From the NCBI GenBank assembly GCA_046116545.1, contig CP175956.1, positions 385,734 to 449,733 on the forward strand: a stretch of 64,000 bases of DNA, given 5' to 3'. This DNA comes from Candidatus Moraniibacteriota bacterium (lineage in GTDB: Bacteria; Patescibacteriota; Minisyncoccia; Moranbacterales; GCA-2747515). The number at the start of each line of letters is the position of its first letter. Positions within the stretch are counted from its first letter, which is position 1. Below the pieces are notes generated by a model, which was not told where the DNA came from, did not search any database, and was given only the letters and a program-made list of their open reading frames with translations. This document shows, piece after piece, positions 30,226-53,746 of this stretch. Position numbers and translations under genes: made by a program.

Positions 30226-31623
30226 TTATTTTAATTTATCAGCTAAATACTTTTGAAGATTTTCAAGGTTTACATTTTCTTGTTCCATAGTATCACGATT
30301 TCTTACTGTAACTATACCTGTTTCTAGTGTATTAAAATCAATTGTTACACAGTATGGAGTTCCAATTTCATCTTGACGACGATAACGTTTTCCTACATTT
30401 CCATTATCATCAAACTCACACATGTATTGCATTTTTAGTTCATCAAACACTTCTCGTGCTTTTGCTACAAGCTCTGGTTTATTTTTCATAAGTGGAAACA
30501 CTGCAACTTTTACTGGCGCTAGATTTACAGGTAATTTCAAAACTGTTCGTGACTTTCCTTCTCCCAAATCCTCCTCTACATAGGAATCTGTAAGCACTGC
30601 CAAAAATGTTCTATCAACTCCAACAGACGTTTCTACTACATGAGGTACAAAAACTTCATTTGTTTGTGGATTTCTATATTCCAATTTCTTTCCAGAATGT
30701 TTCGCATGTTGAGTTAAATCATAATCACCTCTTGCATGCACACCTTCAAGCTCTTTAAAACCAAATGGAAACTTGTACTCAATGTCCCATGCAGCTTTTG
30801 CATAAAAAACAAGATTTTCATGCTCGTGCCATTTCAAATTTTCTTCTTTGATTCCCAAGTCGAGATAATACTGCCATCTTTTCTCTCTCCACTGTTCATA
30901 CATTTCCATAGCATCATCAGGATGTACAAACATCTGCATCTCCATCTGTTCAAATTCTCGTTTACGGAAAATAAATTGCCGTGCAGTAATCTCATTTCTA
31001 AAAGCCTTACCAACCTGTGCAATTCCAAAAGGAACTTTCACACGAGTTGAATCCATTACATTTTTAAAATTAATATAAATACCCTGACAAGTTTCACCTC
31101 TTAAATATGTAGGCTCTTTATCCCAATCTCCTGTAAAATTTCCTAGATTTGATTGTACAAGTAAATTAAAGTTTTTTGATTCAGAAAAATCACTACTCCC
31201 ACACTTTGGACAACGTAATTTTTCTTTATTCTCCACCAATAGAATGTTAATCTCTTCTTCTGTCATTTTCTCATCAGCAAATACCCCAGCATCTTCCAAA
31301 AGATGGTCAACTCTCACACGAGAGTGGCACTGCTTACATTCAGAAAGTGGATCACTAAATCCACCCACATGCCCAGAAGCTTCCCATACCTTTGGATGCA
31401 TAAAAATACTACTATCAAGTCCTACAATATTATCATTCTCCTGTACCATAGCTTTCCACCAAGCTTCTCGAATATTTTTAGCAAGTTCAGTACCATAAGG
31501 ACCAAAGTCATAAACAGCAGCAAACCCACCATAAATTTCACTAGAACCAAATACAAAACCACGTCGCTTCGCAAAACTCACTATTTTTTCCATTAATTTA
31601 TCATCTTTTTTTTCCTCACTCAT
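30226..31623 (-). CDS. glyS: glycyl-tRNA synthetase, alpha2 (eukaryote/archaeal-like class II) type
   Basis: N-term VSFAKRRGFVFGSSEIYGG...YDFGPYG, class-II motifs (FRNEI; GIAQVGKAFRNE), anticodon-binding C-term; 465 aa; preceded by T-box leader. Confidence 0.85.
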   Translation of the reverse strand: MSEEKKDDKLMEKIVSFAKRRGFVFGSSEIYGGFAAVYDFGPYGTELAKNIREAWWKAMVQENDNIVGLDSSIFMHPKVWEASGHVGGFSDPLSECKQCHSRVRVDHLLEDAGVFADEKMTEEEINILLVENKEKLRCPKCGSSDFSESKNFNLLVQSNLGNFTGDWDKEPTYLRGETCQGIYINFKNVMDSTRVKVPFGIAQVGKAFRNEITARQFIFRKREFEQMEMQMFVHPDDAMEMYEQWREKRWQYYLDLGIKEENLKWHEHENLVFYAKAAWDIEYKFPFGFKELEGVHARGDYDLTQHAKHSGKKLEYRNPQTNEVFVPHVVETSVGVDRTFLAVLTDSYVEEDLGEGKSRTVLKLPVNLAPVKVAVFPLMKNKPELVAKAREVFDELKMQYMCEFDDNGNVGKRYRRQDEIGTPYCVTIDFNTLETGIVTVRNRDTMEQENVNLENLQKYLADKLK

Positions 31624-31630
31624 AATTTCA

Positions 31631-31828
31631 TTATTTAAGAATTATTTTATAATCATCAACTTCACTTATATCTTTAAGACCATCAACATGTACATGTTCT
31701 TCTGACCATTTATTTAATAATTTTTCTTTAGCCTTATCCACATCTTCTGCAACAACAAATTCTAGTTTATGCTCTTCCACAATATTTCCCGTAAGTGCTT
31801 TCCCTAAAAAACCTACAAAAAGTTTCAT
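31631..31828 (-). CDS. small hypothetical protein between T-box leader and glyS
   Basis: 65-aa ORF immediately downstream of the T-box terminator and 7 bp upstream of glyS start; acidic, no motifs; may be cotranscribed. Confidence 0.3.
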   Translation of the reverse strand: MKLFVGFLGKALTGNIVEEHKLEFVVAEDVDKAKEKLLNKWSEEHVHVDGLKDISEVDDYKIILK

Positions 31829-31839: not shown

Positions 31840-32196
31840 TTTAAAATAAAAACTCGTCCTGATAATTCCAAAATTTACTTTGAAATAATCAGGACGAGTA
31901 TCAAGCCCGCGGTTCCACCTGTGTTTTTGAATAACTATTTATCCAAACTCTCTATAATTGTAATTTCCATCCATAGGCACGCCACTACCTATCAGTAATA
32001 TACTTAATATATCATCAATTTCTAAAAAGTCAATCTGTAATTCCCATTTTAAAACAAACAAAAATGGTAACATTGTACCATTTTTTGTTTCTGTCTTTGT
32101 TTTTATTTTTATTTTTGTAGGTGTTTTTTATGGGCGGTTGTTTTAAAAAACAAAAAGTGAGTCGAGGCTACCTAAACGCCTTTACTCACCCGTTAT
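31840..32196 (-). promoter_or_regulatory. T-box riboswitch leader (tRNA-Gly sensing) upstream of glyS operon
   Basis: On minus strand: sigma70-like promoter, ~340-nt ORF-free leader with multiple hairpins, conserved T-box sequence acacAGGUGGAACCGCGGG (cf consensus AGGGUGGNACCGCGG; UGGA bulge fits tRNA-Gly UCCA end) directly 5' of a 15-bp-stem terminator followed by UUUUUAUUUU; CAGG/CCUG and CGGG/CUCG can form the alternative antiterminator. Confidence 0.65.
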
Positions 32197-32202
32197 AAAT
32201 AC

Positions 32203-32231
32203 ATTATAGCATGATTTTTAGCCCTGGTCAA
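32203..32231 (-). promoter_or_regulatory. sigma70-like promoter of T-box leader (-35 TTGACC, 17-nt spacer, -10 TATAAT)
   Basis: minus strand reads TTGACCagggctaaaaatcatgcTATAAT (rc of 32203-32231). Confidence 0.6.
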
Positions 32232-32400: not shown

Positions 32401-33120
32401 TTATTTCATACCTATTACAGACATCATTACATTAAAATCAGCTCCATCACGCCTAGCTGAGTAGAAATTACTATTATCTGCAAATGTACACAAGCCACAA
32501 TCATGCATATTAGCTTCATTTATCCCAAAAATTTCAGATTGATCAAAAATTATTTGTCTCAAGTCAATTTTTACCTTTTCGATTGTACTTCCCTTTATTA
32601 CATATTTATCTTGATTATAAAAACCAAATTCTGAAATCAGTTCTTCAAATCCAAAATCAAAATATTCTTTTGATATACCAGGTCCAATAGTTACTTTTAT
32701 ATTTTCCAGCTGCGCCCCCTCTCCCAACATCACATTTAATGTTCTAGGAACTATGTCATTCACTATGCCTCGCCAACCAGCATGTGCAATCCCTATTACA
32801 TCATTATGATTGTCATACATAAATACAGGGTAACAATCTGCTGATGTAACAGATAAATATGTATTTTTTTTACTCGTAACTAATGCATCTGTTTTATCTA
32901 TATTTTTGTCAGAATTTTTATTTACAACAGCAACATTCGTTGTATGTTCTACACACGCACTTACCACATCTTCATATTTTATATTATTTTGTTCACAAAA
33001 TTCTTTACGATTTTTTAAAGCCTCCTTAGTTGAATAATCTCCTTTTAGCTTCATATTTCCGTCATTTTTTGTAGACATTCCAGCAATGATGTCCTCATGT
33101 TGAGAGAAAAATTTATACAT
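32401..33120 (-). CDS. pgeF: YfiH/PgeF (DUF152) purine-nucleoside phosphorylase / peptidoglycan editing factor family
   Basis: GIAHAGWRG and CTFADNSNFYSARRDG motifs typical of DUF152. Confidence 0.7.
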   Translation of the reverse strand: MYKFFSQHEDIIAGMSTKNDGNMKLKGDYSTKEALKNRKEFCEQNNIKYEDVVSACVEHTTNVAVVNKNSDKNIDKTDALVTSKKNTYLSVTSADCYPVFMYDNHNDVIGIAHAGWRGIVNDIVPRTLNVMLGEGAQLENIKVTIGPGISKEYFDFGFEELISEFGFYNQDKYVIKGSTIEKVKIDLRQIIFDQSEIFGINEANMHDCGLCTFADNSNFYSARRDGADFNVMMSVIGMK

Positions 33121-41000: not shown

Positions 41001-44000
41001 ATCCCCACCTAAATCAACTAACACTTGATATTCTGTTAAACCAGTTGCTGTTGTGTTTGACACAGTAACTGGAGTACGACGCATCCATGTATTTACTCCA
41101 TCTACATTCCACATTCCCATTTCTTCAGCACCTACACTGTATGTAGGCTCTTCTGAAATAAATTGTCTATTTTGTCTTTCATTCCACGCATTGTGTTCAT
41201 CATCCTCCCCAGCATATTCATAATATGCATATATTCTATTATCAGACACGACACATGCTCCTGCAGGAATATTTGTACCATCTGTTGTTGAACCAAAATA
41301 CACTTTACCTGGATAAGTAGCTGCAGATGTAACTGTTACTGTATCATCTGGCACTCCCACACCACACACAGTACCATCATGATATAAATTTACAGTTGTT
41401 GTTGTATTCTCTTGTGTTGCAATTGCAATATATTGTATATCTTCTGGAATATAATATTTATAACCCATTTCACCAACAGGTAAAAATGTAACAGCTTCTC
41501 CACCATCACTATCAGCAAGAGCTGATACACCTATAAGATTATCTGCAACAACTCGATGAGCTGGTTCGGATCCCTCAGAACCTGCATCATTTATATCTAT
41601 ATTTTCACCTCTATTAAGAGTATAACTAACACTTGTATTATCACTTCTATAAACTGTAATATTTGTATTATCATAAAGAGCAGCAAATCCAAAGTGTCCA
41701 GAACCAACACCGTACCATTCTTGTGCTGCTGGTGCCATTACAAAACTATCCCCTCCAACATTACTGTGATGCTGTGCAAGAATTGGACAACCATTTGTCA
41801 CCTCTATCATCACAGCATCATCATTTGTGAGTCCGCTACCTGAGGTATCACTAGTGGTTAAATTGTGATGAGTCCCTTGCGTAATTGTAAATGATCCGTT
41901 TGTTACAATGGTATCTGTTTCGTTACGCACTTCTACATCAGCATCACACCATGGAGAAATAAATGAAAAATAATTTGTATATCTATCCATTCGATAAACA
42001 AAATTTTCACTAGCAAAAGACACTGGTACAAGATTATCTGTACCATCTACATTATATCCACCATTAATTGGATCTGTTGTACTAATTGCTGTTGTTTGCT
42101 CAAGTGTTACTGTAGCTGTTGGGTGATGCACACTATCATATTGATTTAATGTCCCACTATATGTTGATACGCTTACATCATTATTATCAGTATAACTAAC
42201 AAAATCTGTAATCGTACCCTCTGCCGTGTCAGCTACTACGTGATAAATCTCTTCTTGTGAACTGTACGTGAATACATCTTCCCTAGAAGATATACCTCCT
42301 GTACTATCATTTCCATAATACATACAAATTTCTTCTGTTACTCCAGCATCTATATTATCCATTTGCAACCATATCCGAGTTGATGTCGTATTCATATCAT
42401 CTGCAATAAAATATGGGAGAATATTGTCATCAGTATCTATAAATCTAATATCATCTCCATCTAACTGCATTTTATTTGTACTAACCAGTGATGAAGTATC
42501 TGTATCTATATATACCTGATACTCTGTTGCATCTATTGCATCAGCATCTGTGTTATCTATATCAAAACATTTTCTATAATTCCAAATTTCTTCTGCAGTC
42601 CTATTAAAAGACACACACTCTAATTCTGGACTAAGTGTATTGTCATCAGTTTCAAAATTAGTGCGATATTGAAAATATTGATTATCAATCACATTTGTCA
42701 AAGTCACATTTGGTAGATTAATTGTACTATTCATCAGTTCTGAATAGTAAGTTGCTCCAGTTCCATCTGGACCTATAAAAGATTCTCCACTACAAGCAAC
42801 ATCATCACAACTTCTTACTTGAAACTTCAGCCTATTTGCTCCACGACGATACAAATTACTAATCTCAGTTGTGCTAAGCGCCCTATTCCATACAGCTGCT
42901 TCATCCATTCGTCCATCTATTTGTTCTCCTCCACCACCTGAACCACCTATTATCATAGGATTTGTATTTACTGTTCCTGTGAATTGACTTGGCTCATCCG
43001 CAACAACTTGACCATCTACATATAATCGTTCACGAGTAGCATCTGCAGTGTAAACCAAGTGTTGCCACCTGCCCGTTGCCAAAACAACACTTCCTGTATT
43101 GATTGTGTTGTAGTTATATAAAACCCCTCCATTTTGCTCAAAATAAATATCATTATTTGAAGCAGTTGTTGTATTTTTGTGGAAAAAACTTCTCCAACCA
43201 CTCCAGTCATCAGCATAAACCCAAATAGATGCAGTTATTTCTGTTGGAAATGAGAGACTTGCATCATCTGCAATTGTAATTTCATCATCACTTCCATCAA
43301 AATCAAGTCCTGTATTAAATTGTCCAGCTAAACCATATCCTGTACCATTATATGAACCGTCATTATTACTTCCAGAACTATCAACTATCGTTCCACTTGA
43401 TTCATTCATATGCATCAATAATACATTCCCAGTCATATCAGTGTTACCAGCACTATAATTACTTTCAATACCAGTATTATTTGGCAACTCTTTATATGTA
43501 GGTGTATTTGATGTCCATATGAAATCTGTCCAAGTTGTAACTTCTTTAGCGTCCAAAATTTCTGATGTATATATACCAGTTCCATTTGTGAGTCCTGTAC
43601 CATTTAGTTCAACCCAATTATTTCCAGCATCCCACCACGTATCACTATAAGTTCCATTATTAAATTCTGCTACACTACATGTTTGCAAATCTTGGAATTG
43701 ACTCCACCAATCATTACTTGATGTGTCAGCAACAGTATCTCCATAACTATTTATTGTTAAAAAGTCATCAGTGTCAGCAACTGCAACTAAATCATCTTCT
43801 CCCGCTTCAAAATTTCCATTAGTATAGGTGCCTGCATCAAATTCAACCTTATCATCTATGTCATTTACTGAACGAGTTTCATACTTTAATAATTCTATAC
43901 CTTCATTTACTATATTTTCATTTTCTGTAAAGTTTTGCACCAATATTTCAGCTTCAATGTATTGAGGCCCATAATATTGTGAAGTAATTATAGTAAGCAT

Positions 44001-44306
44001 CAGAAATGATACTGAAAAGACAGCAGCTACACCTCTCCACGCCTTTGAAATTCCCATTGTTGGAAATTGTGATGATACAGCTATTATTTGTATTTGTTTT
44101 TTGCTCTTTTTTTGTTTTTTAATTGCCTTAGGTGCCTCACTAATAAAATTATTCTTAAGCATTTTTTGAACTCTCTGTTGTGCTCTTTTTTTTGCTATAA
44201 ATCTATATATTTTTTTATATATTCGTTTAACAAAAATAAAAAATCCCCGAATCATTGATTCTAGTTTATCTAGTTTATATTCATTTATTTGAATATTATG
44301 GGACAT
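38016..44306 (-). CDS. giant (2096 aa) membrane-anchored surface protein with concanavalin-A/LamG-like lectin domains and an internal ~330-aa duplicated module
   Basis: N-terminal basic stretch + TM (AWRGVAAVFSVSFLMLTIITSQYY) then ILVQNFT; LamG-like block GLDFDGSDDEITIADDASLSF..ASIWVYADDW..RWQHLVYTADATRERLYVDGQ; second ConA-like block around NANHVDQSN..VIEFNGSY; duplicated module (..FVYRMDRYTNYFSFISPW..VTFLPVGE.. and ..FTYRVDRGNDVFSFYAPF..VTFLSQKE..). Confidence 0.7.
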   Translation of the reverse strand: MSHNIQINEYKLDKLESMIRGFFIFVKRIYKKIYRFIAKKRAQQRVQKMLKNNFISEAPKAIKKQKKSKKQIQIIAVSSQFPTMGISKAWRGVAAVFSVSFLMLTIITSQYYGPQYIEAEILVQNFTENENIVNEGIELLKYETRSVNDIDDKVEFDAGTYTNGNFEAGEDDLVAVADTDDFLTINSYGDTVADTSSNDWWSQFQDLQTCSVAEFNNGTYSDTWWDAGNNWVELNGTGLTNGTGIYTSEILDAKEVTTWTDFIWTSNTPTYKELPNNTGIESNYSAGNTDMTGNVLLMHMNESSGTIVDSSGSNNDGSYNGTGYGLAGQFNTGLDFDGSDDEITIADDASLSFPTEITASIWVYADDWSGWRSFFHKNTTTASNNDIYFEQNGGVLYNYNTINTGSVVLATGRWQHLVYTADATRERLYVDGQVVADEPSQFTGTVNTNPMIIGGSGGGGEQIDGRMDEAAVWNRALSTTEISNLYRRGANRLKFQVRSCDDVACSGESFIGPDGTGATYYSELMNSTINLPNVTLTNVIDNQYFQYRTNFETDDNTLSPELECVSFNRTAEEIWNYRKCFDIDNTDADAIDATEYQVYIDTDTSSLVSTNKMQLDGDDIRFIDTDDNILPYFIADDMNTTSTRIWLQMDNIDAGVTEEICMYYGNDSTGGISSREDVFTYSSQEEIYHVVADTAEGTITDFVSYTDNNDVSVSTYSGTLNQYDSVHHPTATVTLEQTTAISTTDPINGGYNVDGTDNLVPVSFASENFVYRMDRYTNYFSFISPWCDADVEVRNETDTIVTNGSFTITQGTHHNLTTSDTSGSGLTNDDAVMIEVTNGCPILAQHHSNVGGDSFVMAPAAQEWYGVGSGHFGFAALYDNTNITVYRSDNTSVSYTLNRGENIDINDAGSEGSEPAHRVVADNLIGVSALADSDGGEAVTFLPVGEMGYKYYIPEDIQYIAIATQENTTTTVNLYHDGTVCGVGVPDDTVTVTSAATYPGKVYFGSTTDGTNIPAGACVVSDNRIYAYYEYAGEDDEHNAWNERQNRQFISEEPTYSVGAEEMGMWNVDGVNTWMRRTPVTVSNTTATGLTEYQVLVDLGGDVSHMFGHTQTDGGDIRVAGSIGDGTDNIVYALEDFNDTAATGYTWVKVPTIAATSTATFYIYYNPGINLGAYNPILWLDAADTSTITTTGTSVTNWDDKSGNANHVDQSNAGSQPTLTTDGGNQVIEFNGSYMEDGSGLWVSGTTYTDTYTFVAFKNLVLPEDGTLFNETIQAGQYEGRAPNVTNVEFQANTNGGGALSGAYGGDTTTYHVLRFEAHDGGDRIIARDGTTIVSDTNGDSFRGRGRTFNVGSQAGGGRPQSMSLGEMLVFDGNLTTIEVAEIENYLVEKWETGPTSSLLTTGDYNGIFHTATQKANYYVVDERAVGETLSIISFTDNNSINDSFTTQIVDEGEIITAPFGSGILQTDSYSVTGPLHIGFDGDGTDSALPIAYAGTEFTYRVDRGNDVFSFYAPFADATVQIQESSGAGWTTLQTVTVSTGTVQTVVQDIVNTRVFKIISDEPILGFHQASSNDSNILYPTHLGLEEDSGEYEIYGVGTGSVLLGASSDANVTLYRSDGTSTSVVLNAANNFAYTESGGGSQGTALGYHIVSDAPIGATSYADSDGNEVVTFLSQKEFSREYVVSNPTQYMAIVARDANVTCRVYDDTGTEITIDATGTMDNIPPQTGGAQTDPYPNNIHIGGDDTSDGAYFQAGYHMTCDEPVYAYYEHHLNSSVTDETSWLTWPQVRKRAYIEPNVENVDDADEQGLFYESGKDSTTAGIDFEAYAEYTFDTSALIYGEHTYWRDVTWEEITNSRSGANGVEQVTVEVASADPSPTCATASYGSYINVAPTTLATSVDVSLPYVTRTTNTQQILFDDNFSDHSCVKMRIYLRTNNQAYAPKINYVKTGYYVPTLLDDQLNSPTILIEGATSGTSERYRTLKSLTSDAGLNGSQVFTTFENVSDGSVFTQADLDLFEVPSQTINNQFTFPPFPGVTPVDAVTQSVFDSSNDVATYFTHERSSGALETMDFIFNVDIGSVGGPQISRDFQLEISGL

Positions 44307-44362
44307 TACTTTTGTTTTTATTTTAGGGACTTTATATTTCGTTTTTTAAATAAAAAAACAGA

Positions 44363-44398
44363 TGAAAAAATTCGTGTCTGCAGACACTTTTTCACCCG
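44363..44398 (-). terminator. terminator of the 193-aa gene / leader hairpin of giant gene
   Basis: gatgaaaaaa-ttc-gtgtctgcagacac-tttttcacc nested hairpin; T-run follows on minus strand. Confidence 0.5.
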
Positions 44399-44483
44399 TA
44401 TTCGATTTTATAAAAAATATTTTTTTGTTTCTTCAATATCTATCTTTTAATTTCTAATTATCCATTAGAAATTTAAATATTGA

Positions 44484-44615
44484 AGAAACAAAAAAATGGA
44501 TAGCCATTTCTCTATAAAAAATCTATAAATTCAATGTTTATTTTGATAGATTTTATTCAGAGAAAAGGCCACCCATTCCTTATCTTCTTAATGTCTATTA
44601 TACAGCAGAAAGTCC
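44484..44615 (-). repeat. conserved ~130-bp 5' leader repeat upstream of the giant surface-protein gene
   Basis: gaaacaaaaaaatggatagcc ... aaaaggccacccattccttatcttcttaatgtctattatacagcagaaag ; second copy at 46289-46425. Confidence 0.55.
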
Positions 44616-44794
44616 CTAAAGTCAATGTTTTACTATAAAAGTTAGTACTTTTTACATTTCTTATATCTTCAAACCCTCTTATATTAAAGCTTTTTATGAA
44701 TATCTAAAATTCATAAAAATTTTCTTATTTTATTGTAATGAAAATAAAACAAATTTTACTCAAAAATAAAGTAATTTACTTTATTTATTTTGAC

Positions 44795-45376
44795 CTATTT
44801 ACTAGCTCCTCTATGTATATATGTAGTTGATTCAAAATCATCACCATCAGTTAACGTAACCTCATCGCCTTCTGCTCTTTCCACTATAACTTCTATACAC
44901 TCATCGTCATCGATACTTCCCTCATCACTAATAACAGCTCTTGTATTTATATCAATTACTACTGTATATGTATTATCAAAATGTTTTCCTGTTAATAATT
45001 CTATAAACAGTTTATTTTCATAACCTTCATTTTGAATTAAAATTTTATTTATCTTATATTCTTCTAAACAACCCAGTGGATCATCATCACAATCATCACA
45101 AACATTTGGGATAACCTTATTTAAAATTTTCTCAATTTCTTTATCATTTGGAACTTTTGATAAATCAGCTCCAATTTTTATATTATTAGAATCATCTTTT
45201 TTTGTTATTTTTTCCTTTACTATTCCAAGTGAAATGTTTATGACTTCTGTATCGTTTCCATGCGTTATAAATGCAGAAACAATCATAACAATAATAGAAA
45301 CTACAATCAAAACCAAATAAAGTCGTGTGGTTTGAATTGCCTCTTTTCTTTTACTGTTCTTTTTTTGTTTTTGCAT
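44795..45376 (-). CDS. small membrane-anchored protein (MQKQKK N-terminus), paralogous N-term to 45505..46236
   Basis: MQKQKKNSKRKEAIQTTRLYLVLIVVSIIVMIVSAFI signal anchor, acidic Cys-containing ectodomain. Confidence 0.45.
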   Translation of the reverse strand: MQKQKKNSKRKEAIQTTRLYLVLIVVSIIVMIVSAFITHGNDTEVINISLGIVKEKITKKDDSNNIKIGADLSKVPNDKEIEKILNKVIPNVCDDCDDDPLGCLEEYKINKILIQNEGYENKLFIELLTGKHFDNTYTVVIDINTRAVISDEGSIDDDECIEVIVERAEGDEVTLTDGDDFESTTYIHRGASK

Positions 45377-45398
45377 GATGTATAATTATTATGTTTGT

Positions 45399-45452
45399 AC
45401 AAAAAAATAGGTGAAAAGATTTTCTGCACATTGCATATATATCTTTTCACCC
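45399..45452 (-). terminator. terminator of the 243-aa gene
   Basis: ggtgaaaagat...atcttttcacc 11-bp stem, followed on minus strand by TATTTTTTTG. Confidence 0.6.
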
Positions 45453-45504
45453 ATAATTTAACTTCTAATTCTTTTCCAATAATTAATTTCTAATGAAATT
45501 TATA

Positions 45505-46236
45505 CTATTGTGGTGTTGAAGAAACTGTTAAACGAAATGTTCCTGTTTCTCCATCAACCATATTTGCTCCACAATCAACTACAAGACCTAATTGACGATC
45601 TTCACCAGTTGGTACTGCAAATGATCCTGAAGAAGCGTTTGCTACTGATAATACACCAGCAGTAACTTCTAATTGAATTGCGTCATTTGGTGCAGTATTG
45701 TACCACTCTGTTAGTGATCCATAACTACCAGGACTTGGATTTGGTAATTCTGTAATAGCACCACCTGTACTATCTTGATCAGATGTAAACAACCAAATGT
45801 CAGCATCTCCTGCATTGAAATTGTCTACTGTAGCAGCTTGACCATTTAAATCAGCTTCTACTGTAAGAGTTACATCCCAGTTTGCAGCATCTGTATTATT
45901 CAACTGCAATACATCAGTATAATATGTTCGATCTCCTGCAAAACATGTAAATGATATCTCCTCATGAGATAGATTTGTTACAGCAGTACCACCGTCTCCA
46001 TTGGTATCATCTCCATTAGAGATAGTGCTACCAAGATTTACTGTTAAATAAGTTGAAGCGGCTGCGTCTGCACCAGCTACCTTTTCGATTGGAGGTGTAT
46101 CGACCACTACATCCCATTGTGTAAAGTTTTGTACCAAAATGGCACCAAGAACAGGAGCTCCCACAAATAGAGCTAATGCTAGGGCAATATATAGCCCTCT
46201 TTTTTTCGCTACGCTTTTTTGTTTTTGTTTTTGCAT
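45505..46236 (-). CDS. small membrane-anchored protein (MQKQKQK N-terminus; shares post-TM ILVQNFT motif with the giant protein)
   Basis: MQKQKQKSVAKKRGLYIALALALFVGAPVLGAILVQNFTQ; Thr/Asp/Gly-rich ectodomain. Confidence 0.45.
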   Translation of the reverse strand: MQKQKQKSVAKKRGLYIALALALFVGAPVLGAILVQNFTQWDVVVDTPPIEKVAGADAAASTYLTVNLGSTISNGDDTNGDGGTAVTNLSHEEISFTCFAGDRTYYTDVLQLNNTDAANWDVTLTVEADLNGQAATVDNFNAGDADIWLFTSDQDSTGGAITELPNPSPGSYGSLTEWYNTAPNDAIQLEVTAGVLSVANASSGSFAVPTGEDRQLGLVVDCGANMVDGETGTFRLTVSSTPQ

Positions 46237-46288
46237 ATGCTTAGCATATTAATTAATTATATGAGCTTATTTTGAGCTCATTATTTTA

Positions 46289-46425
46289 GAAATAAAAAAA
46301 ATGGATGTGCTTTATCCTTCATCAAAAATCCACCCATACACCCTCCTGGAAGTATGATTTGATTTCATCTGAAGAAAAAGCCACCCATTCCTTAACTTCT
46401 TAACTACATTATACAGCACAGAAAC
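46289..46425 (-). repeat. second copy of leader repeat, upstream of the 243-aa MQKQK gene
   Basis: gaaataaaaaaaatggatgtgc ... aaaaagccacccattccttaacttcttaactacattatacagcacagaaa. Confidence 0.55.
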
Positions 46426-46646
46426 ACAATCGTCAATATTGACAAGTACAAATTTTTACTTGTAGTCCATAGGTTATCAACTTTATAATCTGAGTATACT
46501 ATAATTGCTGTCAAAATTTCACCGCATTATTCCCTATTTTTCCTCAAAAAAGCTAGACGAAAAAACACTCACATGTTACTATAATACAAGTAAACTACTG
46601 TTTCTGAACTCACAGAAGCTCTTATAAATTTATTAGAAAAAACCGT

Positions 46647-47309
46647 ATGCATATCACATATCATGGATTGTCTTGTTTTAAAATTGTAGCAAAAACTGAA
46701 GGACGCGGAAGTAAAGATGTAACAATAGTATTCTCTCCTTATGACAAAAAGTTGGGACTTCGACCTCCTCAAGGTAATGCTAATGCTGTATTTATTCCAC
46801 ATCCAAATGAAATGTTCAATAATCCTGATATATTAAGAGGTGAGCCAGTTGTAGTAAATAAGCCTGGTGAATACTCAATAGAAGGTCTTAATATAATAGG
46901 ACTAGATGCTCCGGCTGATCCTCGTGATGGTATAGACCGTGGTAATACTGTAGTTTTCACTTTAAATATTGAGGATATGAAAATTGCTTATTTAGGAGCT
47001 CTGGGCATGGAACCTTCAACTGAGATATTTGATAAAATAAGTGGTGCTGATATATTATTTGTACCAGTTGGAGACACAGAAGGACTTGATGCAAAAACAG
47101 CTGAGGTAATAGCTCGTAAAGTAGAAGCTAAAATTATTATACCAATGCAATACAAGGTTAAAGGCTTAAAAGTTAAAACTCTCCGTGATGAAAAAGACTT
47201 TTGTAGTGAAATCGGCAATTGTCCCAAATCAAAAGAAGAAAAGTTAACCTTAAAAAAGAAGGATCTCGAAAATAAAGTAATGGAGGTCGTGCTGATGAAA
47301 GTTAGCTAA
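46647..47309 (+). CDS. metallo-beta-lactamase-fold protein (COG2220/UlaG-like) with degenerate metal-binding motif
   Basis: MHITYHGLSCFKI (cf MKITWLGHSAFLIE), C-term ILFVPVGDTEGL...IIIPMQY (cf HVGDTG...VIPMHY); HxHxDH position reads IPHPNEMFNNPD. Confidence 0.45.
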   Translation: MHITYHGLSCFKIVAKTEGRGSKDVTIVFSPYDKKLGLRPPQGNANAVFIPHPNEMFNNPDILRGEPVVVNKPGEYSIEGLNIIGLDAPADPRDGIDRGNTVVFTLNIEDMKIAYLGALGMEPSTEIFDKISGADILFVPVGDTEGLDAKTAEVIARKVEAKIIIPMQYKVKGLKVKTLRDEKDFCSEIGNCPKSKEEKLTLKKKDLENKVMEVVLMKVS

Positions 47310-47338
47310 ATATAAAAACTAACATAATATAAGTAGCC

Positions 47339-47620
47339 ATGTTTGATAAAATAGAAAAAAAAGTGGAAGAGGTGCGACAACAACCTGAGGAAATACGAAT
47401 TCGTTACGTATGGGGTTCAGTTGCTATTACAATGTTTTTTGTAATTTTTATATGGCTACTATCAATGAAAATAAACTTCTTACAAGTATCTAATACTAAT
47501 GAATCTACTGAAGCTGTTGAAGACTTACAAAGGCGTATAGATACACTAAATAATGGTGGTATCTCACCTGATCAAGCTATCTCTATCGATGAATTATTGC
47601 AACAAAATTCCGCTGAATAA
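47339..47620 (+). CDS. small single-TM hypothetical protein
   Basis: 93-aa ORF, TM WGSVAITMFFVIFIWLLSM. Confidence 0.35.
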   Translation: MFDKIEKKVEEVRQQPEEIRIRYVWGSVAITMFFVIFIWLLSMKINFLQVSNTNESTEAVEDLQRRIDTLNNGGISPDQAISIDELLQQNSAE

Positions 47621-47755
47621 AACAAAAAATCTATAGTTAACCTCTCTTTTTATAAAAATGAGAAAAGAGATTAACTATAGAATATAGATAAAAAACAAAC
47701 AAAAAACATATAGGAGGATGTTTTTTGTCGTTTTTGTGTGTAAATCGATGTATAT

Positions 47756-47777
47756 CGTTCCCGTGTAGACGGGAATC
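47756..47777. repeat. palindromic unit upstream of gyrA (cgttcccgtgtagacgggaatc)
   Basis: stem TTCCCGT/ACGGGAA resembling the gtcattcccgcgaaggcgggaat unit. Confidence 0.4.
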
Positions 47778-47804
47778 CAGTAAATAATAAATAAATTTAA
47801 TAGT

Positions 47805-50267
47805 ATGGCAAAGAACAAAAAAACAGATGAACCAGTTGTACATAAAGCTGTTACACCTCAACCAATAGTTGAGGAAATGCAAAAATCATATCTTGAATAT
47901 GCTATGAGTGTTATTGTTGCTCGTGCACTTCCTGATGTACGTGATGGGATGAAGCCTGTGCATCGTAGAATTCTTTACTCTATGTGGAAAACAGGTCTTA
48001 AACCAACTGCAAAGTTCCGTAAAAGTGCTACCGTTGTTGGTGAAGTACTTGGTAAATATCATCCACATGGTGATACAGCTGTTTACGATACAATGGTTCG
48101 TATGGCTCAAGACTTCTCACTCAGATACCCTCTTGTATGGGGACAAGGAAACTTTGGCTCAATGGATGGGGATAGCGCTGCTGCTTATCGTTATACTGAG
48201 GCAAAACTACAATATATAGCAGAAGAAATGCTATTTGATATTGAGAAAGACACTGTTAACTTTCGACCAAACTTTGATGGAGTTCACCAAGAACCATCTG
48301 TACTTCCTGCAAAGCTACCTCAATTACTACTAAATGGAACAATGGGCATTGCTGTTGGTATGGCAACAAATATTCCACCTCACAATCTAGGCGAGCTGAC
48401 AGGTGCTATAATGCATCTTGTAGATAAACCAAAAGCAGATGTTGATGACTTGCTAAACTATGTGAAAGGCCCTGACTTCCCTACTGGTGGCATGATTTAT
48501 AATCAAACAGAAATCCGCGAGGCTTATGCGACTGGACGAGGACGAATTACTATGCGAGCAAAAGCTGAAATTGTAGAAGGTCGTGCTGGTCAATTTTCAA
48601 TCATCGTTACTGAGATGACTTACCTTACAAATAAAGCAACTCTTATTGAAAAAATTGCAAATTTGGTAAAAGATAAAAAAATAGTAGGTATAAAGGCATT
48701 ACGTGATGAATCAAGTAAGGATGGCGTACGAGTTGTTATGGATCTTAAGAAGGATGCGTACCCTCAAAAAGTTTTAAATAGACTTTATACTCTTACAGAC
48801 CTACAAAAAAACTTCAATGCCAACATGCTTGCTCTTGTTGATGGTATTGAGCCACGAATTCTAAACTTAAAAGAAATTTTAGAATATTATATTGCTCATC
48901 GTAGAGAAGTTATAACAAGGCGAACACAGTTTGATTTAAACAAAGCAAAAGAACGCGCACATATCCTAGAAGGATTACAGATAGCGTTAGACAATATCGA
49001 TGCTGTTATAGCAATTATCAAAAAATCCAGAACTCGTGAAACAGCTCATGAAAACTTACGTAAAAAGTTTAAACTTTCAGATTTACAAACAGTTGCTATT
49101 TTGGAAATGCGACTTCAGACGCTTGCTGGATTGGAAAGAAAAAAGATTGAGGATGAATTGAAAGAAAAAATGCGTATTATCAAAAAGCTTGAAGCAATCT
49201 TAAAAAGTGAGAAGAGACAAAAAGAAATTCTCAAAAATGAACTTATTGAACTTACAGAAAAATTTGGTGATGCTCGTAAAACCAAAGTATTCAAAAGTGC
49301 TGTAGGAGAATTCAAACAAGAAGATCTTGTACCAAATGAAGAAGCTCTTATCACAATGACAACTGATGGATACATCAAAAGAATGAATCCAATAAACTAC
49401 AAGGTGCAAAAACGTGGTGGTAAAGGAGTAATCGGAGGTAATACAAAAGAAGATGCTAGTGTACGGAGTATGCTTAGTATCATGACTCATGATAATCTTT
49501 TCTTCTTTACGAATACTGGTAAAGTTTTCCAAATAAAAGCATACGAAATTCCAGAATCAACTCGTACAGCTAAGGGAAATGCTGTTGTAAACTTCTTACA
49601 ACTTGCACCCAATGAAGAAATTACAGAAGTAATTCCATTCAACAAAGAAGATAGATATAAATTCTTATTTATGGCAACAAAGGCAGGTGTCGTGAAAAAA
49701 GTAAAAATCAAAGACTTCGATAATGTAAGACGAGGTGGACTTATTGCAATAAAATTAAAGGGTGATGATAAATTAAAGTGGGTTAAACCTACAACAGGAA
49801 CAGATGAAGTATCACTTATAACTGCAGGAGGTCAAGCAATACGATTCAAAGAGGCTAACGTACGCGCAATGGGTAGAAGTGCCGCTGGTGTACGAGGAAT
49901 CAGATTGAAAAAAGATGACTATGTAGTAGGAATGGACGTAATATTTGCTAAACAAAGGGGTGCTGAACTATTTGTCTTAACAGAAAATGGTTATGGAAAG
50001 AAAAGTAAGATGACACAATACAAAGCACAAAGGCGTGGAGGATCAGGAATCAAAACTGCAAAAATAACTCCAAAGACTGGTCAAATAGTAAGTGCTTACA
50101 TAGTGAGTGCCGATGATACAGATAGTGACGTGATAATAACAAGTGCAAACGGACAAATAATCCGTACACCACTAGGAAACATCTCAACACTCTCAAGAGC
50201 AACTCAAGGAGTAAGAATAATGAAACCAAAAGCAGGCGACAAACTAAGCGCCGCAACAATTTTGTAA
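47805..50267 (+). CDS. gyrA: DNA gyrase subunit A
   Basis: N-term [27 protein letters not shown], active-site region, C-terminal beta-pinwheel with QRRGGKG / RGG repeats; 820 aa. Confidence 0.9.
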
Positions 50268-50282
50268 ACTACTTTTACAAAA

Positions 50283-50328
50283 TAAAAAAACACTTAGGGA
50301 CAGGTTTCAAACCTGTCCCTATTTTGTT
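50283..50328 (+). terminator. gyrA intrinsic terminator
   Basis: agggacaggtt-tcaa-acctgtccct-attttgtt. Confidence 0.75.
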
Positions 50329-50349
50329 ACCACATCTTGGCATCCTGAA

Positions 50350-50400
50350 CTTTTTTAAAAAATACAAACCCGTAGGATACTTATATCCACACGGGTTTTA
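50350..50400 (-). terminator. terminator for minus-strand small-gene array
   Basis: aaacccgt-aggatacttatatccac-acgggttt with T-run on minus strand. Confidence 0.6.
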
Positions 50401-50406
50401 TTGATT

Positions 50407-50838
50407 CTATTCTAGCAATACAAATACTTCACCAGCCTTTTGTGCAATTCTGATCATTTCTTCTCTTTCTTTGTTTTGCATCTTTGTTCCATTGCCCCAT
50501 ATAAGATCTCTGACGTGAGGTGTTCTAAAAATACTTTTTGGCAAATCTATATTCATATAACAGACCTTCGTTGCCAACAATAGTGGGAATTTAGGAATAA
50601 GCACTCTCTTTTCCCAAGAAAACTGGTCAATTACCCCTAAATACAAATAATCCTCTTTTGCTGGACTAATAATTAGTACATTGCCCTCTTCAACAAATGT
50701 AAGGTTCATCCCCAATTGCAAAAATTCTTTAGTATATTGTGCTGCATTTTCACTAATAAACTCAAGTCTCAACTCAAGAACCTCACAAATTATACATTGC
50801 TCTTCCTTAATAAAAAAATCTTTGATTTGTTCTTTCAT
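50407..50838 (-). CDS. hypothetical protein (member of small-gene tandem array)
   Basis: 143-aa ORF with good SD (GGGAGGAG) 8 nt upstream; conserved ~40-nt motif 39-79 nt upstream. Confidence 0.4.
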   Translation of the reverse strand: MKEQIKDFFIKEEQCIICEVLELRLEFISENAAQYTKEFLQLGMNLTFVEEGNVLIISPAKEDYLYLGVIDQFSWEKRVLIPKFPLLLATKVCYMNIDLPKSIFRTPHVRDLIWGNGTKMQNKEREEMIRIAQKAGEVFVLLE

Positions 50839-50876
50839 AACTAAACTCCTCCCAATATTTACTTTAAAGAACTAGT

Positions 50877-50917
50877 CCTCTTATAAAACTACGACTATTC
50901 GTAATCTTGATGAGAGG
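50877..50917 (-). promoter_or_regulatory. conserved ~40-nt upstream motif of small-gene array (copy 1)
   Basis: cctcttataaaactacgactattcgtaatcttgatgagagg. Confidence 0.45.
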
Positions 50918-50953
50918 AGCAAGAAGATTAAATTCAAACTCCTTGCCCACAAA

Positions 50954-51490
50954 CTACAGAGGAATTTTTTCCACTTTAGGAATCTCCAATTCATACTCCT
51001 TTTTGTAATACCCCATATCACCAGGCTGAAATCCTGCCCAAAGACCTGACATATCTGGAGCTTCATACTCTCCAGAAATGATAGCAACATCTTCTTTGAA
51101 GGTGATCTCATTAACTGTCCATTTTCGCATCCCTCCTATTGAGCTAAAGAACAGCTCTTCTCCTTTAAGTATTACAATGTAACTCCCCGCTGACACCCAG
51201 CTTGTGCCAGAGCTTTTATCGTGTAAACATTGACGGAGACTATCTTCAGTTTCCTCCATCCAAACACTTGTGTCCATACGACTTTCTTGTCGCACAAATA
51301 CAATCTCAATATCTGAGCTTGGACTTGGTAATATATAGATATGACCTCTAAGAAGTTTTTTATATTCATTATTACACCGTCTACCATACACATAACCATA
51401 GTAATGACTACTAATTGTACTAGTGGTATTTTTAACCTTAACCAACATTTTTTCCAGTTTACTCATGACAATCTCCTTGTATATTTTCAT
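50954..51490 (-). CDS. hypothetical protein (member of small-gene tandem array)
   Basis: 178-aa ORF, SD GTAGGAG upstream; conserved upstream motif. Confidence 0.4.
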   Translation of the reverse strand: MKIYKEIVMSKLEKMLVKVKNTTSTISSHYYGYVYGRRCNNEYKKLLRGHIYILPSPSSDIEIVFVRQESRMDTSVWMEETEDSLRQCLHDKSSGTSWVSAGSYIVILKGEELFFSSIGGMRKWTVNEITFKEDVAIISGEYEAPDMSGLWAGFQPGDMGYYKKEYELEIPKVEKIPL

Positions 51491-51502
51491 AAAGAACTTT
51501 CA

Positions 51503-51533
51503 CTCCTACAAAACTATGAGAAATTCATAATCT
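51503..51533 (-). promoter_or_regulatory. conserved upstream motif (copy 2)
   Basis: ctcctacaaaactatgagaaattcataatct. Confidence 0.45.
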
Positions 51534-51549
51534 ATTATTTTTATAAAAC

Positions 51550-51954
51550 TCATTCAGGACGAACTATATATTCTTTGAAGATTTCAACTAATTTTCCATC
51601 CTCAGTATATCCTGTAATACGTCTATAACGCCGAGCAGTTTCTCCTTTGATTTCTTTTTCAAGAAAATTTAAAATTAATTTTGGAAAATCTTCAACCATC
51701 CTATCTATATCAGCACAATCTATAATATGCATCTCATCAAAAACCGATGAGAGATGATCCGTCTTATGATATTCTTTTTTACAAGTGCCGTCGCATCTGC
51801 CAAATACATCTAAATAAATGCTCAAAAAATACTTCCCACTCGAATATAATCTTAAGTGAACGCCTTTATGACATATCATAACAAAATCTTTAGTATCATT
51901 TGACTCATGGGTACTTGATATTGGACCAAAAAAAGTCATTGGCATGTCTTTCAT
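51550..51954 (-). CDS. hypothetical protein (member of small-gene tandem array)
   Basis: 134-aa ORF, SD AAGAGGA 7 nt upstream; conserved upstream motif. Confidence 0.4.
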   Translation of the reverse strand: MKDMPMTFFGPISSTHESNDTKDFVMICHKGVHLRLYSSGKYFLSIYLDVFGRCDGTCKKEYHKTDHLSSVFDEMHIIDCADIDRMVEDFPKLILNFLEKEIKGETARRYRRITGYTEDGKLVEIFKEYIVRPE

Positions 51955-51986
51955 ATTACATCCTCTTTTTTTAAAGAAAAACTACT

Positions 51987-52027
51987 CTCCTACAAAATCA
52001 TGAACTATTCATAATTTTGATTAGAGG
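51987..52027 (-). promoter_or_regulatory. conserved upstream motif (copy 3)
   Basis: ctcctacaaaatcatgaactattcataattttgattagagg. Confidence 0.45.
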
Positions 52028-52073
52028 GGTAAGCAGTTTAGATTTAAACTTCTTACCCTTATGCTGGAATGGA

Positions 52074-52409
52074 CTACCTATAGTCCGCACCTGTTACCAC
52101 ACTTCTAAAGAAATACTCAAATCTCCAACTAGTATCATAATGTTCATAAAATCTTATTTCCTTTATTAATTCTCTTACTCTCTCTATTGTTTCTTTCGGC
52201 ATAAAAATATCAACTGCCCTATTCAATTTATTATTCTTAACATTCTCAAATATGCCCTGTAACAACTCATATAACTCCCTCTGTCTTTTAGAACTATCCA
52301 CAGCAATACCAGATACTACTATTTTCATATCATTGATATAAAAAGTGTATTGTATTGAACATGATACGCTCATTCCCATTCCTTCCTGCAAAGTAACTTT
52401 CATTATCAT
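52074..52409 (-). CDS. hypothetical protein (fourth member of small-gene tandem array; lacks the upstream motif)
   Basis: 111-aa ORF. Confidence 0.35.
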   Translation of the reverse strand: MIMKVTLQEGMGMSVSCSIQYTFYINDMKIVVSGIAVDSSKRQRELYELLQGIFENVKNNKLNRAVDIFMPKETIERVRELIKEIRFYEHYDTSWRFEYFFRSVVTGADYR

Positions 52410-52651
52410 CTCCCTATTTTTGAGTTATTTTCTTTAAAAAAACTGTTTATTACGATTTCTTTAGTGTTTCATCGTAACAGTGTATAATACCCCATTTTTA
52501 CAAGGAAGTCAATATTTGTGTCTAGTTTTATGTTGTAAAATGCTTATTTTTTGTGTTAAATGCTAGGTTTGTGGGTTATTTTATATTTAGTAGTCAGTAT
52601 TATTGACTATTTGGGTTATTTGTGATATACTTGTGTTATCCTAAGGCTTTC

Positions 52652-52748
52652 GTCATTACGGGGAGGTACGACGAGGCAATCTCGATAAATTTTACGATAA
52701 TCTTACTGAGTTTGCTTCCTCGTCGTACCTCCTCCTCGCAAAGACAAT
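52652..52748. repeat. complete MITE-like element with terminal inverted repeats
   Basis: gtcattacggggaggtacgacgagg ... cctcgtcgtacctcctcctcgcaaagacaa. Confidence 0.6.
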
Positions 52749-52758
52749 AGTCCTCTAT

Positions 52759-52850
52759 TTGTCATTCCCGCGAAGGCGGGAATTTTTCGAAAAGTACAGA
52801 TACATTCATTTTACATGCAGAAAGATACCTGCCTTCGCAGGTATGACACA
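52759..52850. repeat. two further palindromic units (tttgtcattcccgcgaaggcgggaat; acctgccttcgcaggtatgacaca)
   Basis: stems with GAAG/CTTC loops flanked by gtcatt / atgaca motifs. Confidence 0.5.
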
Positions 52851-52905
52851 ATTAATTTCACGGGACTAGTCTACTACTAACTTAATCCTTATAAATCAAA
52901 ATATT

Positions 52906-53649
52906 ATGGAAAAAGTAAAAGCACTTGAGGATTTGGGACTTAGTGAGAAGGAAGCAAAAGTTTATCTTGCTCTTTTGGAGTTGGGTCAGGCTTCTGCTTA
53001 TCGCGTGGCTCAGAAATCCGGTGTCAAAAAACCAACAACTTATGTGTTGTTGGATGAACTTCGGAAGAAGGAACTAGTTATCAAGATGCCCGGAGATGCT
53101 ACTCAGATGTTTATTGCCAAATCTCCTGAGGAGTTTTTTGCATCTGCGAGGTATCGAGTTAATAATGCTATTGAGAGTTTGCCTGAGATTCTCTCTGTCA
53201 TGAAAAAACAAAACAAAGTACGTACTATGTACTTTGAAGGCATCAATGGCTTAAAACAAGCACTGTGGCATGAAATGAAGTCGAATGCTGGTGGTGAACT
53301 CATTGGGTTTTATGCTAAGGCTGAAAATATGAGTAAAGAGCTCTATGACCTGACATGGAAGTGGGCTGAAGATACAAAAAAATACGATATATCATTAAGG
53401 GGTTTTGTACCTACACATGATACTGTCACGGACTATCGTAAAGCTGACAAAAAATATAATCGTGAGATGAGACCACTGCCCTACGAAGATTATTCATCAG
53501 AAACATCTCTTGATGTAATGAATGACTTTGTTCGCATAATTGATCTAACTGCAGATAATCCTCAAGCAATAATTATAGAAAATGAGCGAATGGCAAAAAT
53601 GGTAAGACAAATTTTTGAAATGATGTGGAAATTAACCACTCCTAGTTAA
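52906..53649 (+). CDS. TrmB-family transcriptional regulator (intact paralog)
   Basis: N-terminal wHTH LGLSEKEAKVYLALLELGQASAYRVAQKSGVKKPTTYVLLDELRKKELV typical of TrmB; 247 aa. Confidence 0.65.
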   Translation: MEKVKALEDLGLSEKEAKVYLALLELGQASAYRVAQKSGVKKPTTYVLLDELRKKELVIKMPGDATQMFIAKSPEEFFASARYRVNNAIESLPEILSVMKKQNKVRTMYFEGINGLKQALWHEMKSNAGGELIGFYAKAENMSKELYDLTWKWAEDTKKYDISLRGFVPTHDTVTDYRKADKKYNREMRPLPYEDYSSETSLDVMNDFVRIIDLTADNPQAIIIENERMAKMVRQIFEMMWKLTTPS

Positions 53650-53695
53650 ATAGGTTTATTTTTATGAATTGAACTATATATAATGCTATCGAAAG

Positions 53696-53746
53696 ATTCC
53701 CGCCAGAGTTTATACTCGAGCTTGCTCAAGTGCTGGAATGACAAAG
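53696..53746. repeat. degenerate TGTCATT-family unit (minus-strand orientation)
   Basis: attcccgccagag...ctggaatgacaaag. Confidence 0.35.

Follow-up and report, generated by a model that had tools for sequence, protein, structure and literature searches.

A predicted glycyl T-box riboswitch of reduced architecture upstream of glyS in Candidatus Moraniibacteriota

The window is a stretch of 64,000 nucleotides (nt) with a G+C content of about 33% from the genome of a Candidatus Moraniibacteriota bacterium (contig CP175956.1, positions 385,734 to 449,733), and the subject of this report is the leader of its glyS gene. The minus strand carries every gene around this locus. A Cu-oxidase_4 (YfiH-like) gene is followed by a gap of about 570 base pairs (bp), then by a small gene that encodes a DUF1543 protein of 65 amino acids (aa), and finally by glyS, which encodes a dimeric (alpha2-type) glycyl-tRNA synthetase (GlyRS) (Table 1). 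The gap probably contains a T-box riboswitch which responds to tRNA-Gly and controls transcriptional read-through into DUF1543 and glyS, and which represents a reduced variant of this class of element that is conserved in Candidatus Moraniibacteriota. The support is computational and consists of the individual sequence elements, the mutual exclusivity of a terminator and an antiterminator, the covariation of helices and a loop triplet that only ever specifies glycine; the binding of tRNA, the transcription start site and the effect on transcription are inferred.

The discriminator half of the element contains the T-box sequence AGGUGGAACCGCGGG at positions 31920..31906 of the minus strand. An exact match to AGGTGGAACCGCGGG occurs only once in the window (31906..31920, minus strand), where chance would account for 0.01 occurrences per window even if two mismatches were allowed. 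This sequence is part of an antiterminator in which two helices, A1 and A2, flank a bulge of seven nucleotides with the pattern UGGNACC, and in which a G.U pair is located directly above the bulge. A UGGAACC bulge combined with such a G.U pair is the reported signature of glycyl T-boxes (PMC11404447). Stem III lies 5' of the antiterminator and is preceded by AGAGAG, in agreement with the purine-rich AGNG motif that is expected at this position. Folded alone, the antiterminator has an energy of -6.0 kcal/mol. The 3' strands of its A2 and A1 helices (31898..31890) are reused by the 5' arm of an intrinsic terminator, the hairpin of which is followed by UUUUUAUUUU, and the two structures are thus mutually exclusive. 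Since the weak antiterminator shares these strands with a far stronger terminator (-26 kcal/mol), termination would be the default state, as it is in all T-boxes.

Equivalent terminators with U tracts and the same strand-sharing layout (-19 to -36 kcal/mol) are found in 26 of the 26 leaders of the first set of relatives. A translational mode, in which a sequestrator occludes the Shine-Dalgarno sequence and no terminator is formed, does not describe the locus, which has both a hairpin and a U tract. The next start codon is located 14 nt past the U tract in the window and at least 22 nt beyond the terminator hairpin in the relatives, and the latter distance argues against Shine-Dalgarno sequestration. 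The original prediction, which was made from the sequence of the window alone, had described a T-box sequence with a UGGA bulge appropriate for tRNA-Gly, a strong terminator and a 65-aa open reading frame (ORF) between this terminator and an alpha2-type glyS; each of these is borne out, the ORF being a real DUF1543 gene in the regulated operon. Its central proposal of a glycine T-box that controls glyS likewise appears to hold, given the UGGA bulge, a GGC specifier and the mutually exclusive terminator and antiterminator.

The sensing half of the element is built around a hairpin of only 20 nt that is interpreted as an ultrashort Stem I, with a terminal loop of 6-10 nt depending on the formation of U.G and A-U closing pairs. 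A specifier loop presenting GGC had been named as a check on the original prediction, and such a loop is found here (31983..31981). Its codon matches the amino acid handled by the product of the downstream gene and is displayed in a terminal loop, not an internal one. Next comes a linker which ends in a purine-rich AGAG(U)G motif directly before Stem III, where the Rfam consensus reads AGuG. The linker contains no hairpin, and both Stem II and Stem IIA/B are absent in the window; the segment that Rfam places as Stem II falls on promoter sequence. The window also lacks a long Stem I with an AG bulge and a distal loop, the interdigitated T-loops of which dock onto the tRNA elbow, and Rfam deletes 85 positions of Stem I.

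The conservation of this architecture was followed in 80 genome loci of Moranbacteria (L001-L080) and in 80 independent metagenome loci. In genomes sampled at one per species, the nearest relatives of the GlyRS almost all belong to Candidatus Moraniibacteriota or to other metagenome-assembled genomes of Patescibacteria, and the best of them, L001, is 94% identical. The sequence TGGAACCGCG is found upstream of glyS in 22 of the first 80 loci, and each of the 22 has a short hairpin at a distance of about 50-105 nt on the 5' side of the T-box sequence. The stems of these hairpins are as different as AUAGGUA/UGCCUAU, GUGAGUA/UACUCAC, GGGGA/UCCCU, CCUUCGGGG/UCCCGGAGG and UGAAGA/UCUUCA. A covariance model of the hairpin, Stem III, A1 and A2 (R1), built from 21 leaders, has a single match in the window (31993..31888, 88.8 bits). 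In the genome loci it matches 25 times directly upstream of glyS, five of these leaders being outside the seed, and it matches 19 times in the metagenome loci, where 12 of the sequences are new, which brings the total to 38 distinct leaders. The homologous hairpin is present in all 38, with differing stem sequences. Its loop triplet is GGC in 18 leaders, GGA in 17 and GGU in three, and never a codon for another amino acid, while the preceding base is U in every case (38/38), and the loop sequence is therefore UGGC, UGGA or UGGU. All but one of the 38 leaders have UGGA in the T-box bulge (37/38), and the pair above the bulge is G.U in 21 of 25 leaders and G-C in the remaining four.

All modelled helices show covariation. 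Across 25 sequences, 83% of the alignment cells are paired compared with 71% in shuffles, and 104 cells show double changes compared with 45; the inner pairs of Stem I are 89% paired and have compensatory changes at three out of three positions. The relatives have a hairpin of 5-12 bp at the site of Stem III; its stem sequences are unrelated while its place is fixed, and compensatory changes are seen at all seven of its modelled pairs. For 16 held-out sequences the proportion of paired cells is 85% against 73%, with compensatory changes at 18 of 22 pairs, a value which was reached by none of 500 shuffles. An independent run of RNAalifold recovers the Stem I hairpin together with A1 and A2. An alignment made with MAFFT alone mis-registers Stem I and Stem III, and covariance-model alignments were used instead. 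One alternative specifier, the GGA triplets in the linker (AUGGAUGGAAA, 31972..31963), was rejected: L001 has AGACAGAAA at this position, and the triplets have no conserved structural context.

These data bear on a different interpretation of the hairpin, in which the discriminator is functional and the UGGN loop serves as a protein site, as a pause or folding element or as a second mimic of the acceptor end rather than as a specifier, so that the identity of the tRNA would be read through its 3' end alone or not at all. This would fit the ability of UGGN to pair with NCCA-3' as well as the lack of a conserved purine 3' of the codon, and neither the window nor the 60 loci scanned for tRNA genes offers a tRNA-Gly with which the pairing could be checked. 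However, the fourth base of the loop varies between C, A and U while the bulge stays UGGA, which is unlike the behaviour of a partner of the discriminator base. Throughout the 38 leaders, moreover, only the third, synonymous base of a glycine codon changes, as a specifier predicts, and in those relatives that have a kink-turn (K-turn) the loop coincides with the specifier region of the Rfam model above the K-turn. A hairpin that is not a specifier is therefore considered very unlikely.

The size of the leader depends on its promoter. The likely promoter of the T-box, which is referred to here as the proximal promoter, lies upstream of the specifier hairpin and is separated from it by 13 nt. 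In L001 both hexamers and their spacing are kept and four substitutions are found in the spacer, a pattern which is that of a promoter and not of an RNA helix. Likewise, 22 of 23 leaders have a sigma-70-type promoter, with a score between 9.5 and 12 out of 12, whose end is separated from the homologous hairpin downstream by 3-35 nt. Transcription thus most likely starts near 31999, giving a predicted leader of about 158 nt (approximately 31999..31842), and such promoter positions leave no room for a canonical Stem I in either the window or these relatives.

The original prediction had instead derived a structured leader of about 340 nt, and with it a conventional T-box, from a promoter of the form TTGACC-17-TATAAT further upstream. 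This distal promoter exists and is the closer of the two to the consensus (11/12 as compared with 10/12), and it is kept in L001. A conventional T-box starting at 32231, with a full-length Stem I and an internal specifier loop, could also draw on the folding of the whole 361-nt stretch, which is better than that of shuffled sequences (z = -6.1), and read-through from upstream is conceivable. Much of this z-score is owed to the distal hairpins and the terminator, however, and a transcript from the distal promoter would meet a stable hairpin with a U run about 6 nt after its predicted start (32191..32155, -18.3 kcal/mol, z = -3.9) and then a second hairpin with a U run (32091..32051). Rfam finds no Stem I, and the distal unit that comprises this promoter and both hairpins (32231..32046) is missing from 158 of 159 related loci, where the T-boxes start directly upstream of the specifier hairpin. 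In place of the conventional Stem I there is the 20-nt hairpin, which displays the codon in a terminal loop, and a leader of conventional design is very unlikely at this locus. The long-range pairs with CCGCCC/CACCU (about 32135..32115) in the minimum-free-energy fold of the 361-nt stretch are deleted in L001 and were judged to be due to chance.

The distal unit is probably not part of the T-box. It is shared with L001 only, where it is about 90% identical, and has no match in Rfam; it may represent a small RNA gene with a product of about 52 or about 150 nt, or the terminators of the upstream gene. In the alignment with L001, the DNA located 5' of the unit appears markedly more diverged than the unit itself.

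The relatives also suggest how the reduced Stem I has arisen. A true K-turn is located under the hairpin in at least nine of the 38 relatives (L003, L004, L007, L012, L016, L022, L033, L047 and L120), where it is laid out as C-stem, 3-nt bulge, GA, hairpin, GA, C-stem and its C-stems covary. No K-turn (GA motif) is found in the window. A candidate of the form AAUU-GAU-GA...GA-AAUU (about 32019..31961) fits the consensus but was rejected: it overlaps the conserved -10 region, transcription is predicted to start downstream of its 5' half, and its 3' half is disrupted in L001. The lineage of the window (the window, L001, L005, L006, L009 and L010) has presumably lost the motif, and some accepted T-boxes also have no K-turn (PMC11404447). 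The family as a whole appears to be a canonical T-box minus everything that is distal to the specifier, the specifier loop having become a terminal loop. Compared with known transcriptional T-boxes, the elements that are missing are thus the AG bulge, the distal loop and the remainder of Stem I beyond the specifier, Stem II and Stem IIA/B, and in the window the K-turn as well. What is left can be described as a putative glycyl T-box that terminates transcription and has an ultrashort Stem I, a sensing domain of about 110 nt and neither an elbow platform nor Stem II. Such an RNA could be a reductive derivative or a primitive core of the T-box.

The Rfam alignments are consistent with this description. 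The T-box family RF00230 is the best match of the window (42.6 bits, E = 4.5e-6), with Stem III, the T-box sequence and the antiterminator fitting well and the 85 deleted Stem I positions replaced by 5 nt; the low score is explained by the missing canonical Stem I. The relative L047 scores 46.9 bits (E = 1.5e-9), and its K-turn and 4 bp are aligned to the base of the canonical Stem I. Here the 76 positions of Stem I from the specifier loop to the distal loop are replaced by an 8-nt loop, GGUUGGAG, and 40 model positions of Stem II and Stem IIA/B by a single nucleotide.

The least probable of the alternatives, a decaying remnant of a canonical T-box that has lost Stem I and retains a constitutive, leaky terminator insensitive to tRNA, would suit the reductive genomes of the candidate phyla radiation (CPR) and the lack of both the elbow platform and the Stem II and Stem IIA/B elements, which are regarded as important tRNA contacts (PMC7583486; PMC11297988), but it is disfavoured because a relic would not show the purifying selection that is seen in at least 38 diverged leaders (GlyRS 70-94% identical), in which the reduced architecture is kept with compensatory changes in every helix, the codon is always one for glycine, the UGGAACC bulge is kept and so, in most (21/25), is the G.U pair.

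Further variation within the family was observed. A T-box upstream of glyS is detectable in 25 of the 80 species-level relatives, and its carriers are scattered over GlyRS identities of 73-94%, a distribution that points to repeated loss or to further divergence. R1 detected no second T-box in the approximately 890 kb of Moranbacteria DNA to which it was applied. The A2 loop has insertions of about 35-45 nt in L003 (about 2866-2905), L004 (about 2864-2904), L006 (about 2482-2521) and L010 (about 2823-2867). Those of L003, L004 and L010 have a common hairpin, AUAGCUC...GAG(C/U), and that of L006 is more diverged (GAGUUUC..GAGC). L033 (2230-2366, equivalent to L102 730-866) is a divergent member which contains GGGUGGAACCGCCCCGC and an A2 insertion of about 45 nt; its terminator is located about 100 nt further downstream and its model score, at 35.6 bits, is the lowest.

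Table 1. Features of the glyS leader locus, in window coordinates and in the order of transcription
Feature	Position	Strand	Description
Cu-oxidase_4 (YfiH-like) gene	33120..32401	-	5' neighbour, before the gap
Distal promoter	32231..32203	-	TTGACC-17-TGcTATAAT; 11/12 with TG; near-consensus
Distal unit	32046..32231	-	promoter, hairpin with U run, A-rich spacer, second hairpin with U run; probably outside the T-box
Proximal promoter, likely for the T-box	32006..32033	-	TTGACT-16-TGaTATATT; scan 10/12 with TG
Proximal -35 element	32033..32028	-	TTGACT, followed by 16-nt spacer
Proximal -10 hexamer	32011..32006	-	extended -10
Putative ultrashort Stem I	31973..31992	-	AUAGGUA-GUGGCG-UGCCUAU, 20 nt; stem 5-7 bp
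Putative specifier codon	31981..31983	-	GGC (glycine), in terminal loop of Stem I; invariant U (31984) before it
Linker	31948..31972	-	25 nt, single-stranded, A-rich (GGAUGGAAAUUACAAUUAUAGAGAG); read from sequence
Stem III	31926..31947	-	UUUGGAUAA-AUAG-UUAUUCAAA, 9 bp; aligned by Rfam to model Stem III
Antiterminator (T-box discriminator core)	31890..31921	-	helices A1 and A2 with 7-nt bulge
Helix A1	31921..31918 with 31893..31890	-	CAGG with CCUG; 100% paired; compensatory changes at 3/4 pairs
Bulge	31917..31911	-	UGGAACC, 7 nt, between A1 and A2; exact T-box sequence
Helix A2	31910..31906 with 31898..31894	-	GCGGG with CUCGU; 97% paired across relatives
Intrinsic terminator	31842..31899	-	hairpin 31899..31852, then U tract to 31842; -26.8 kcal/mol, z = -8.15
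DUF1543 gene, 65 aa, first in the regulated transcript	31631..31828	-	Pfam PF07566, E = 8.8e-10, 38.7 bits (cut-off 22.9)
glyS, dimeric (alpha2-type) glycine--tRNA ligase, 465 aa, regulated target	30226..31623	-	NF003211, 623.6 bits; TIGR00389 glyS_dimeric, 494 bits; Pfam tRNA-synt_2b and HGTP_anticodon

The closest characterised counterpart is the class I, transcriptional T-box of glyQS (glyQ) in Bacillus subtilis and Geobacillus, the simplest T-box that has been characterised (PDB 6POM, 4LCK, 4MGN and 6PMO). Both share tRNA-Gly as the class of ligand, a GGC specifier, the UGGAACC bulge with its G.U pair, a Stem III directly 5' of the antiterminator and an intrinsic terminator that competes with the antiterminator, and both are without Stem II and Stem IIA/B. 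Glycyl T-boxes in general are usually without Stem II and have a long Stem I, the distal T-loops of which bind to the tRNA elbow. Stem I of glyQS is about 85-100 nt long and contains a K-turn, an internal specifier loop and a platform of AG bulge and distal loop which makes stacking contact with the tRNA elbow and functions as a molecular ruler (PMC7583486; PMC12990946). In contrast, the Moranbacteria leaders have a Stem I of 20 nt with the codon in a terminal loop and no platform, and the K-turn is lacking in the window and present in at least nine of the 38 relatives. The purine after the codon is not conserved whereas the U before it is invariant, and the target is a single-chain GlyRS which in the window is preceded by the DUF1543 gene.

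A short Stem I is otherwise known from the class II, translational ileS T-boxes of actinobacteria (Mycobacterium tuberculosis, PDB 6UFG/6UFH; Nocardia farcinica, PDB 6UFM). As in the Moranbacteria leaders, their short Stem I pairs with the anticodon without an elbow platform and the discriminator core with its UGGN bulge is kept. They retain Stem II and a Stem IIA/B pseudoknot that make up in part for the lost contact with the elbow (PMC11297988), and they regulate translation by sequestration of the Shine-Dalgarno sequence. The Moranbacteria leaders have neither Stem II (S-turn) nor the pseudoknot and end in a hairpin with a U tract, and they also differ from the ileS type in amino acid, target and phylum. 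A review from 2020 states that transcriptional T-boxes generally require the elbow motif and treats intermediate and ultrashort forms of Stem I as a feature of translational T-boxes, for which insertions in A2 are also noted (PMC7583486, section 6.2); some of the Moranbacteria relatives have A2 insertions too. In a review from 2026 the ultrashort class is described only in the form of translational ileS T-boxes (PMC12990946).

The glyS genes of staphylococci and Clostridium tetani, which are targets of T-boxes, encode single-chain GlyRS. The original prediction had regarded the pairing of a T-box with an alpha2-type GlyRS in this AT-rich, small-genome organism as noteworthy; as a glyS T-box is already known in staphylococci (PMC9177973), the unusual points are rather the host phylum and the reduced architecture. 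The staphylococcal leaders have an insertion in the antiterminator/terminator domain, stem Sa (PMC9177973), which recalls the A2 insertions of L003, L004, L006 and L010, and the glyS T-box of C. tetani has a GGA specifier (PMC11404447), as do 17 of the 38 leaders described here. Both have a full-length Stem I, however, and the sequences of the insertions are unrelated to those of Moranbacteria.

A mechanism can be proposed from these elements. The nascent leader would form the 20-nt hairpin, and its terminal loop would offer U-GGC to the anticodon of tRNA-Gly (GCC). A fourth pair may be made between the invariant U and A37, and in leaders with UUGGN loops a fifth pair could be formed with A38. 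Beyond the 25-nt linker and Stem III, the UGGA of the bulge would pair with the UCCA at the free 3' end of uncharged tRNA-Gly, and this pairing with the acceptor end would stabilise the weak antiterminator (-6 kcal/mol) against the terminator (-26 kcal/mol) and allow RNA polymerase to read on. Glycyl-tRNA-Gly would be unable to stabilise the antiterminator, and transcription would stop at the U tract (31851..31842). We lean, with some reserve, towards the more specific reading that Moraniibacteriota, a clade of the CPR, use a terminator-type T-box which reads tRNA-Gly through two contacts only and without elbow docking or Stem II. The first contact would be a loop-loop interaction of 4-5 bp between U-GGN, often UU-GGN, and positions 34-37 or 34-38 of the anticodon loop, and the second the acceptor-end helix UGGA:UCCA.

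Several points weigh against this interpretation. Transcriptional T-boxes are held to need the elbow-docking platform for fast capture of the tRNA (PMC7583486), and in a leader without platform and Stem II the binding of tRNA might be too weak or too slow, a helper factor might be needed, or the element might act as a leaky attenuator. The base after the codon, a purine in characterised glycyl T-boxes, is U in 10 of the 38 leaders. Taken alone, the sensing domain is no more stably folded than shuffled sequences are (z = 0.04 and -0.37), and when the hairpin with a TGG(A/C/T) loop is judged sequence by sequence against shuffles it is only weakly significant, with P roughly between 0.01 and 0.5 for each. 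As this null is weak, the case rests on the homologous position of the hairpin, the covariation, the many different stems and the synonymous-only variation of the codon. The covariation in turn is measured on alignments that were fitted to the model, and between related sequences. The scan with RF00230 that had been proposed as a check on the original prediction does return a significant match, but its 42.6 bits are below the gathering score of 93 and a default Rfam scan reports nothing in the window. Finally, no tRNA-Gly was found in the window or in the 60 of 160 related loci that were scanned, which contain a single tRNA-Gln, and the GCC anticodon, U73 and A37 of tRNA-Gly are assumed here from general knowledge of the bacterial tRNA.

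The stop codon of the DUF1543 gene lies 7 nt before the start codon of glyS, which would imply that DUF1543 is co-transcribed with glyS and is also under control of the T-box. The 65-aa protein is labelled by NCBI as a DUF1543 domain-containing protein of Candidatus Moraniibacteriota and has a weak match to an uncharacterised protein of known structure (PDB 2qsd); a homology search returned the protein itself alone. The gene is not found at the corresponding position in the relatives, most of which have glyS directly 3' of the terminator and some of which have other small ORFs, and its presence in the regulated transcript looks like the result of a lineage-specific insertion. The ORFs found between terminator and glyS in different Moranbacteria are unrelated to each other, most relatives having none. 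A family of about 122-131 aa is common to L005 (2595..), L006 (2605..) and L009 (2592..), and there are ORFs of 126 aa in L012 (2542..) and of 283 aa in L015 (313..). The junction between the T-box leader and the gene seems to be a hot spot for insertions.

In the remainder of the window no tRNA genes were found over the whole 64 kb with ARAGORN or Rfam. A perfect inverted repeat of 15 nt is located at 52662-52676 and 52718-52732 (GGAGGTACGACGAGG and CCTCGTCGTACCTCC) with 41 nt between its arms, and adjoins weak hairpin-type Rfam matches at 52741-52846. The GC skew is between -0.2 and -0.33 over most of the window and near zero at about 44-56 kb (44000..56000).

A literature search of incomplete coverage returned no paper in which T-boxes are connected with the CPR, Patescibacteria, Parcubacteria or Saccharibacteria, and a prior description is possible. 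The Rfam gathering score is reached by none of 20 related loci, or with the window by none of the 21 leaders tested, which means that standard annotation misses this reduced family and that censuses of T-boxes may undercount reduced forms. The finding places T-box riboswitches in the CPR (Patescibacteria), the members of which have tiny genomes and very few known regulators. A conserved terminator-type T-box without platform or Stem II would make the kinetic argument for elbow docking testable on a short leader (about 160 nt). If the interpretation is true, its sensing domain of about 110 nt would make it the smallest natural T-box, and it could serve as a minimal scaffold for structural work and for engineered sensors of tRNA charging. 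It would also imply that the elbow platform is not a general need for the co-transcriptional sensing of tRNA.

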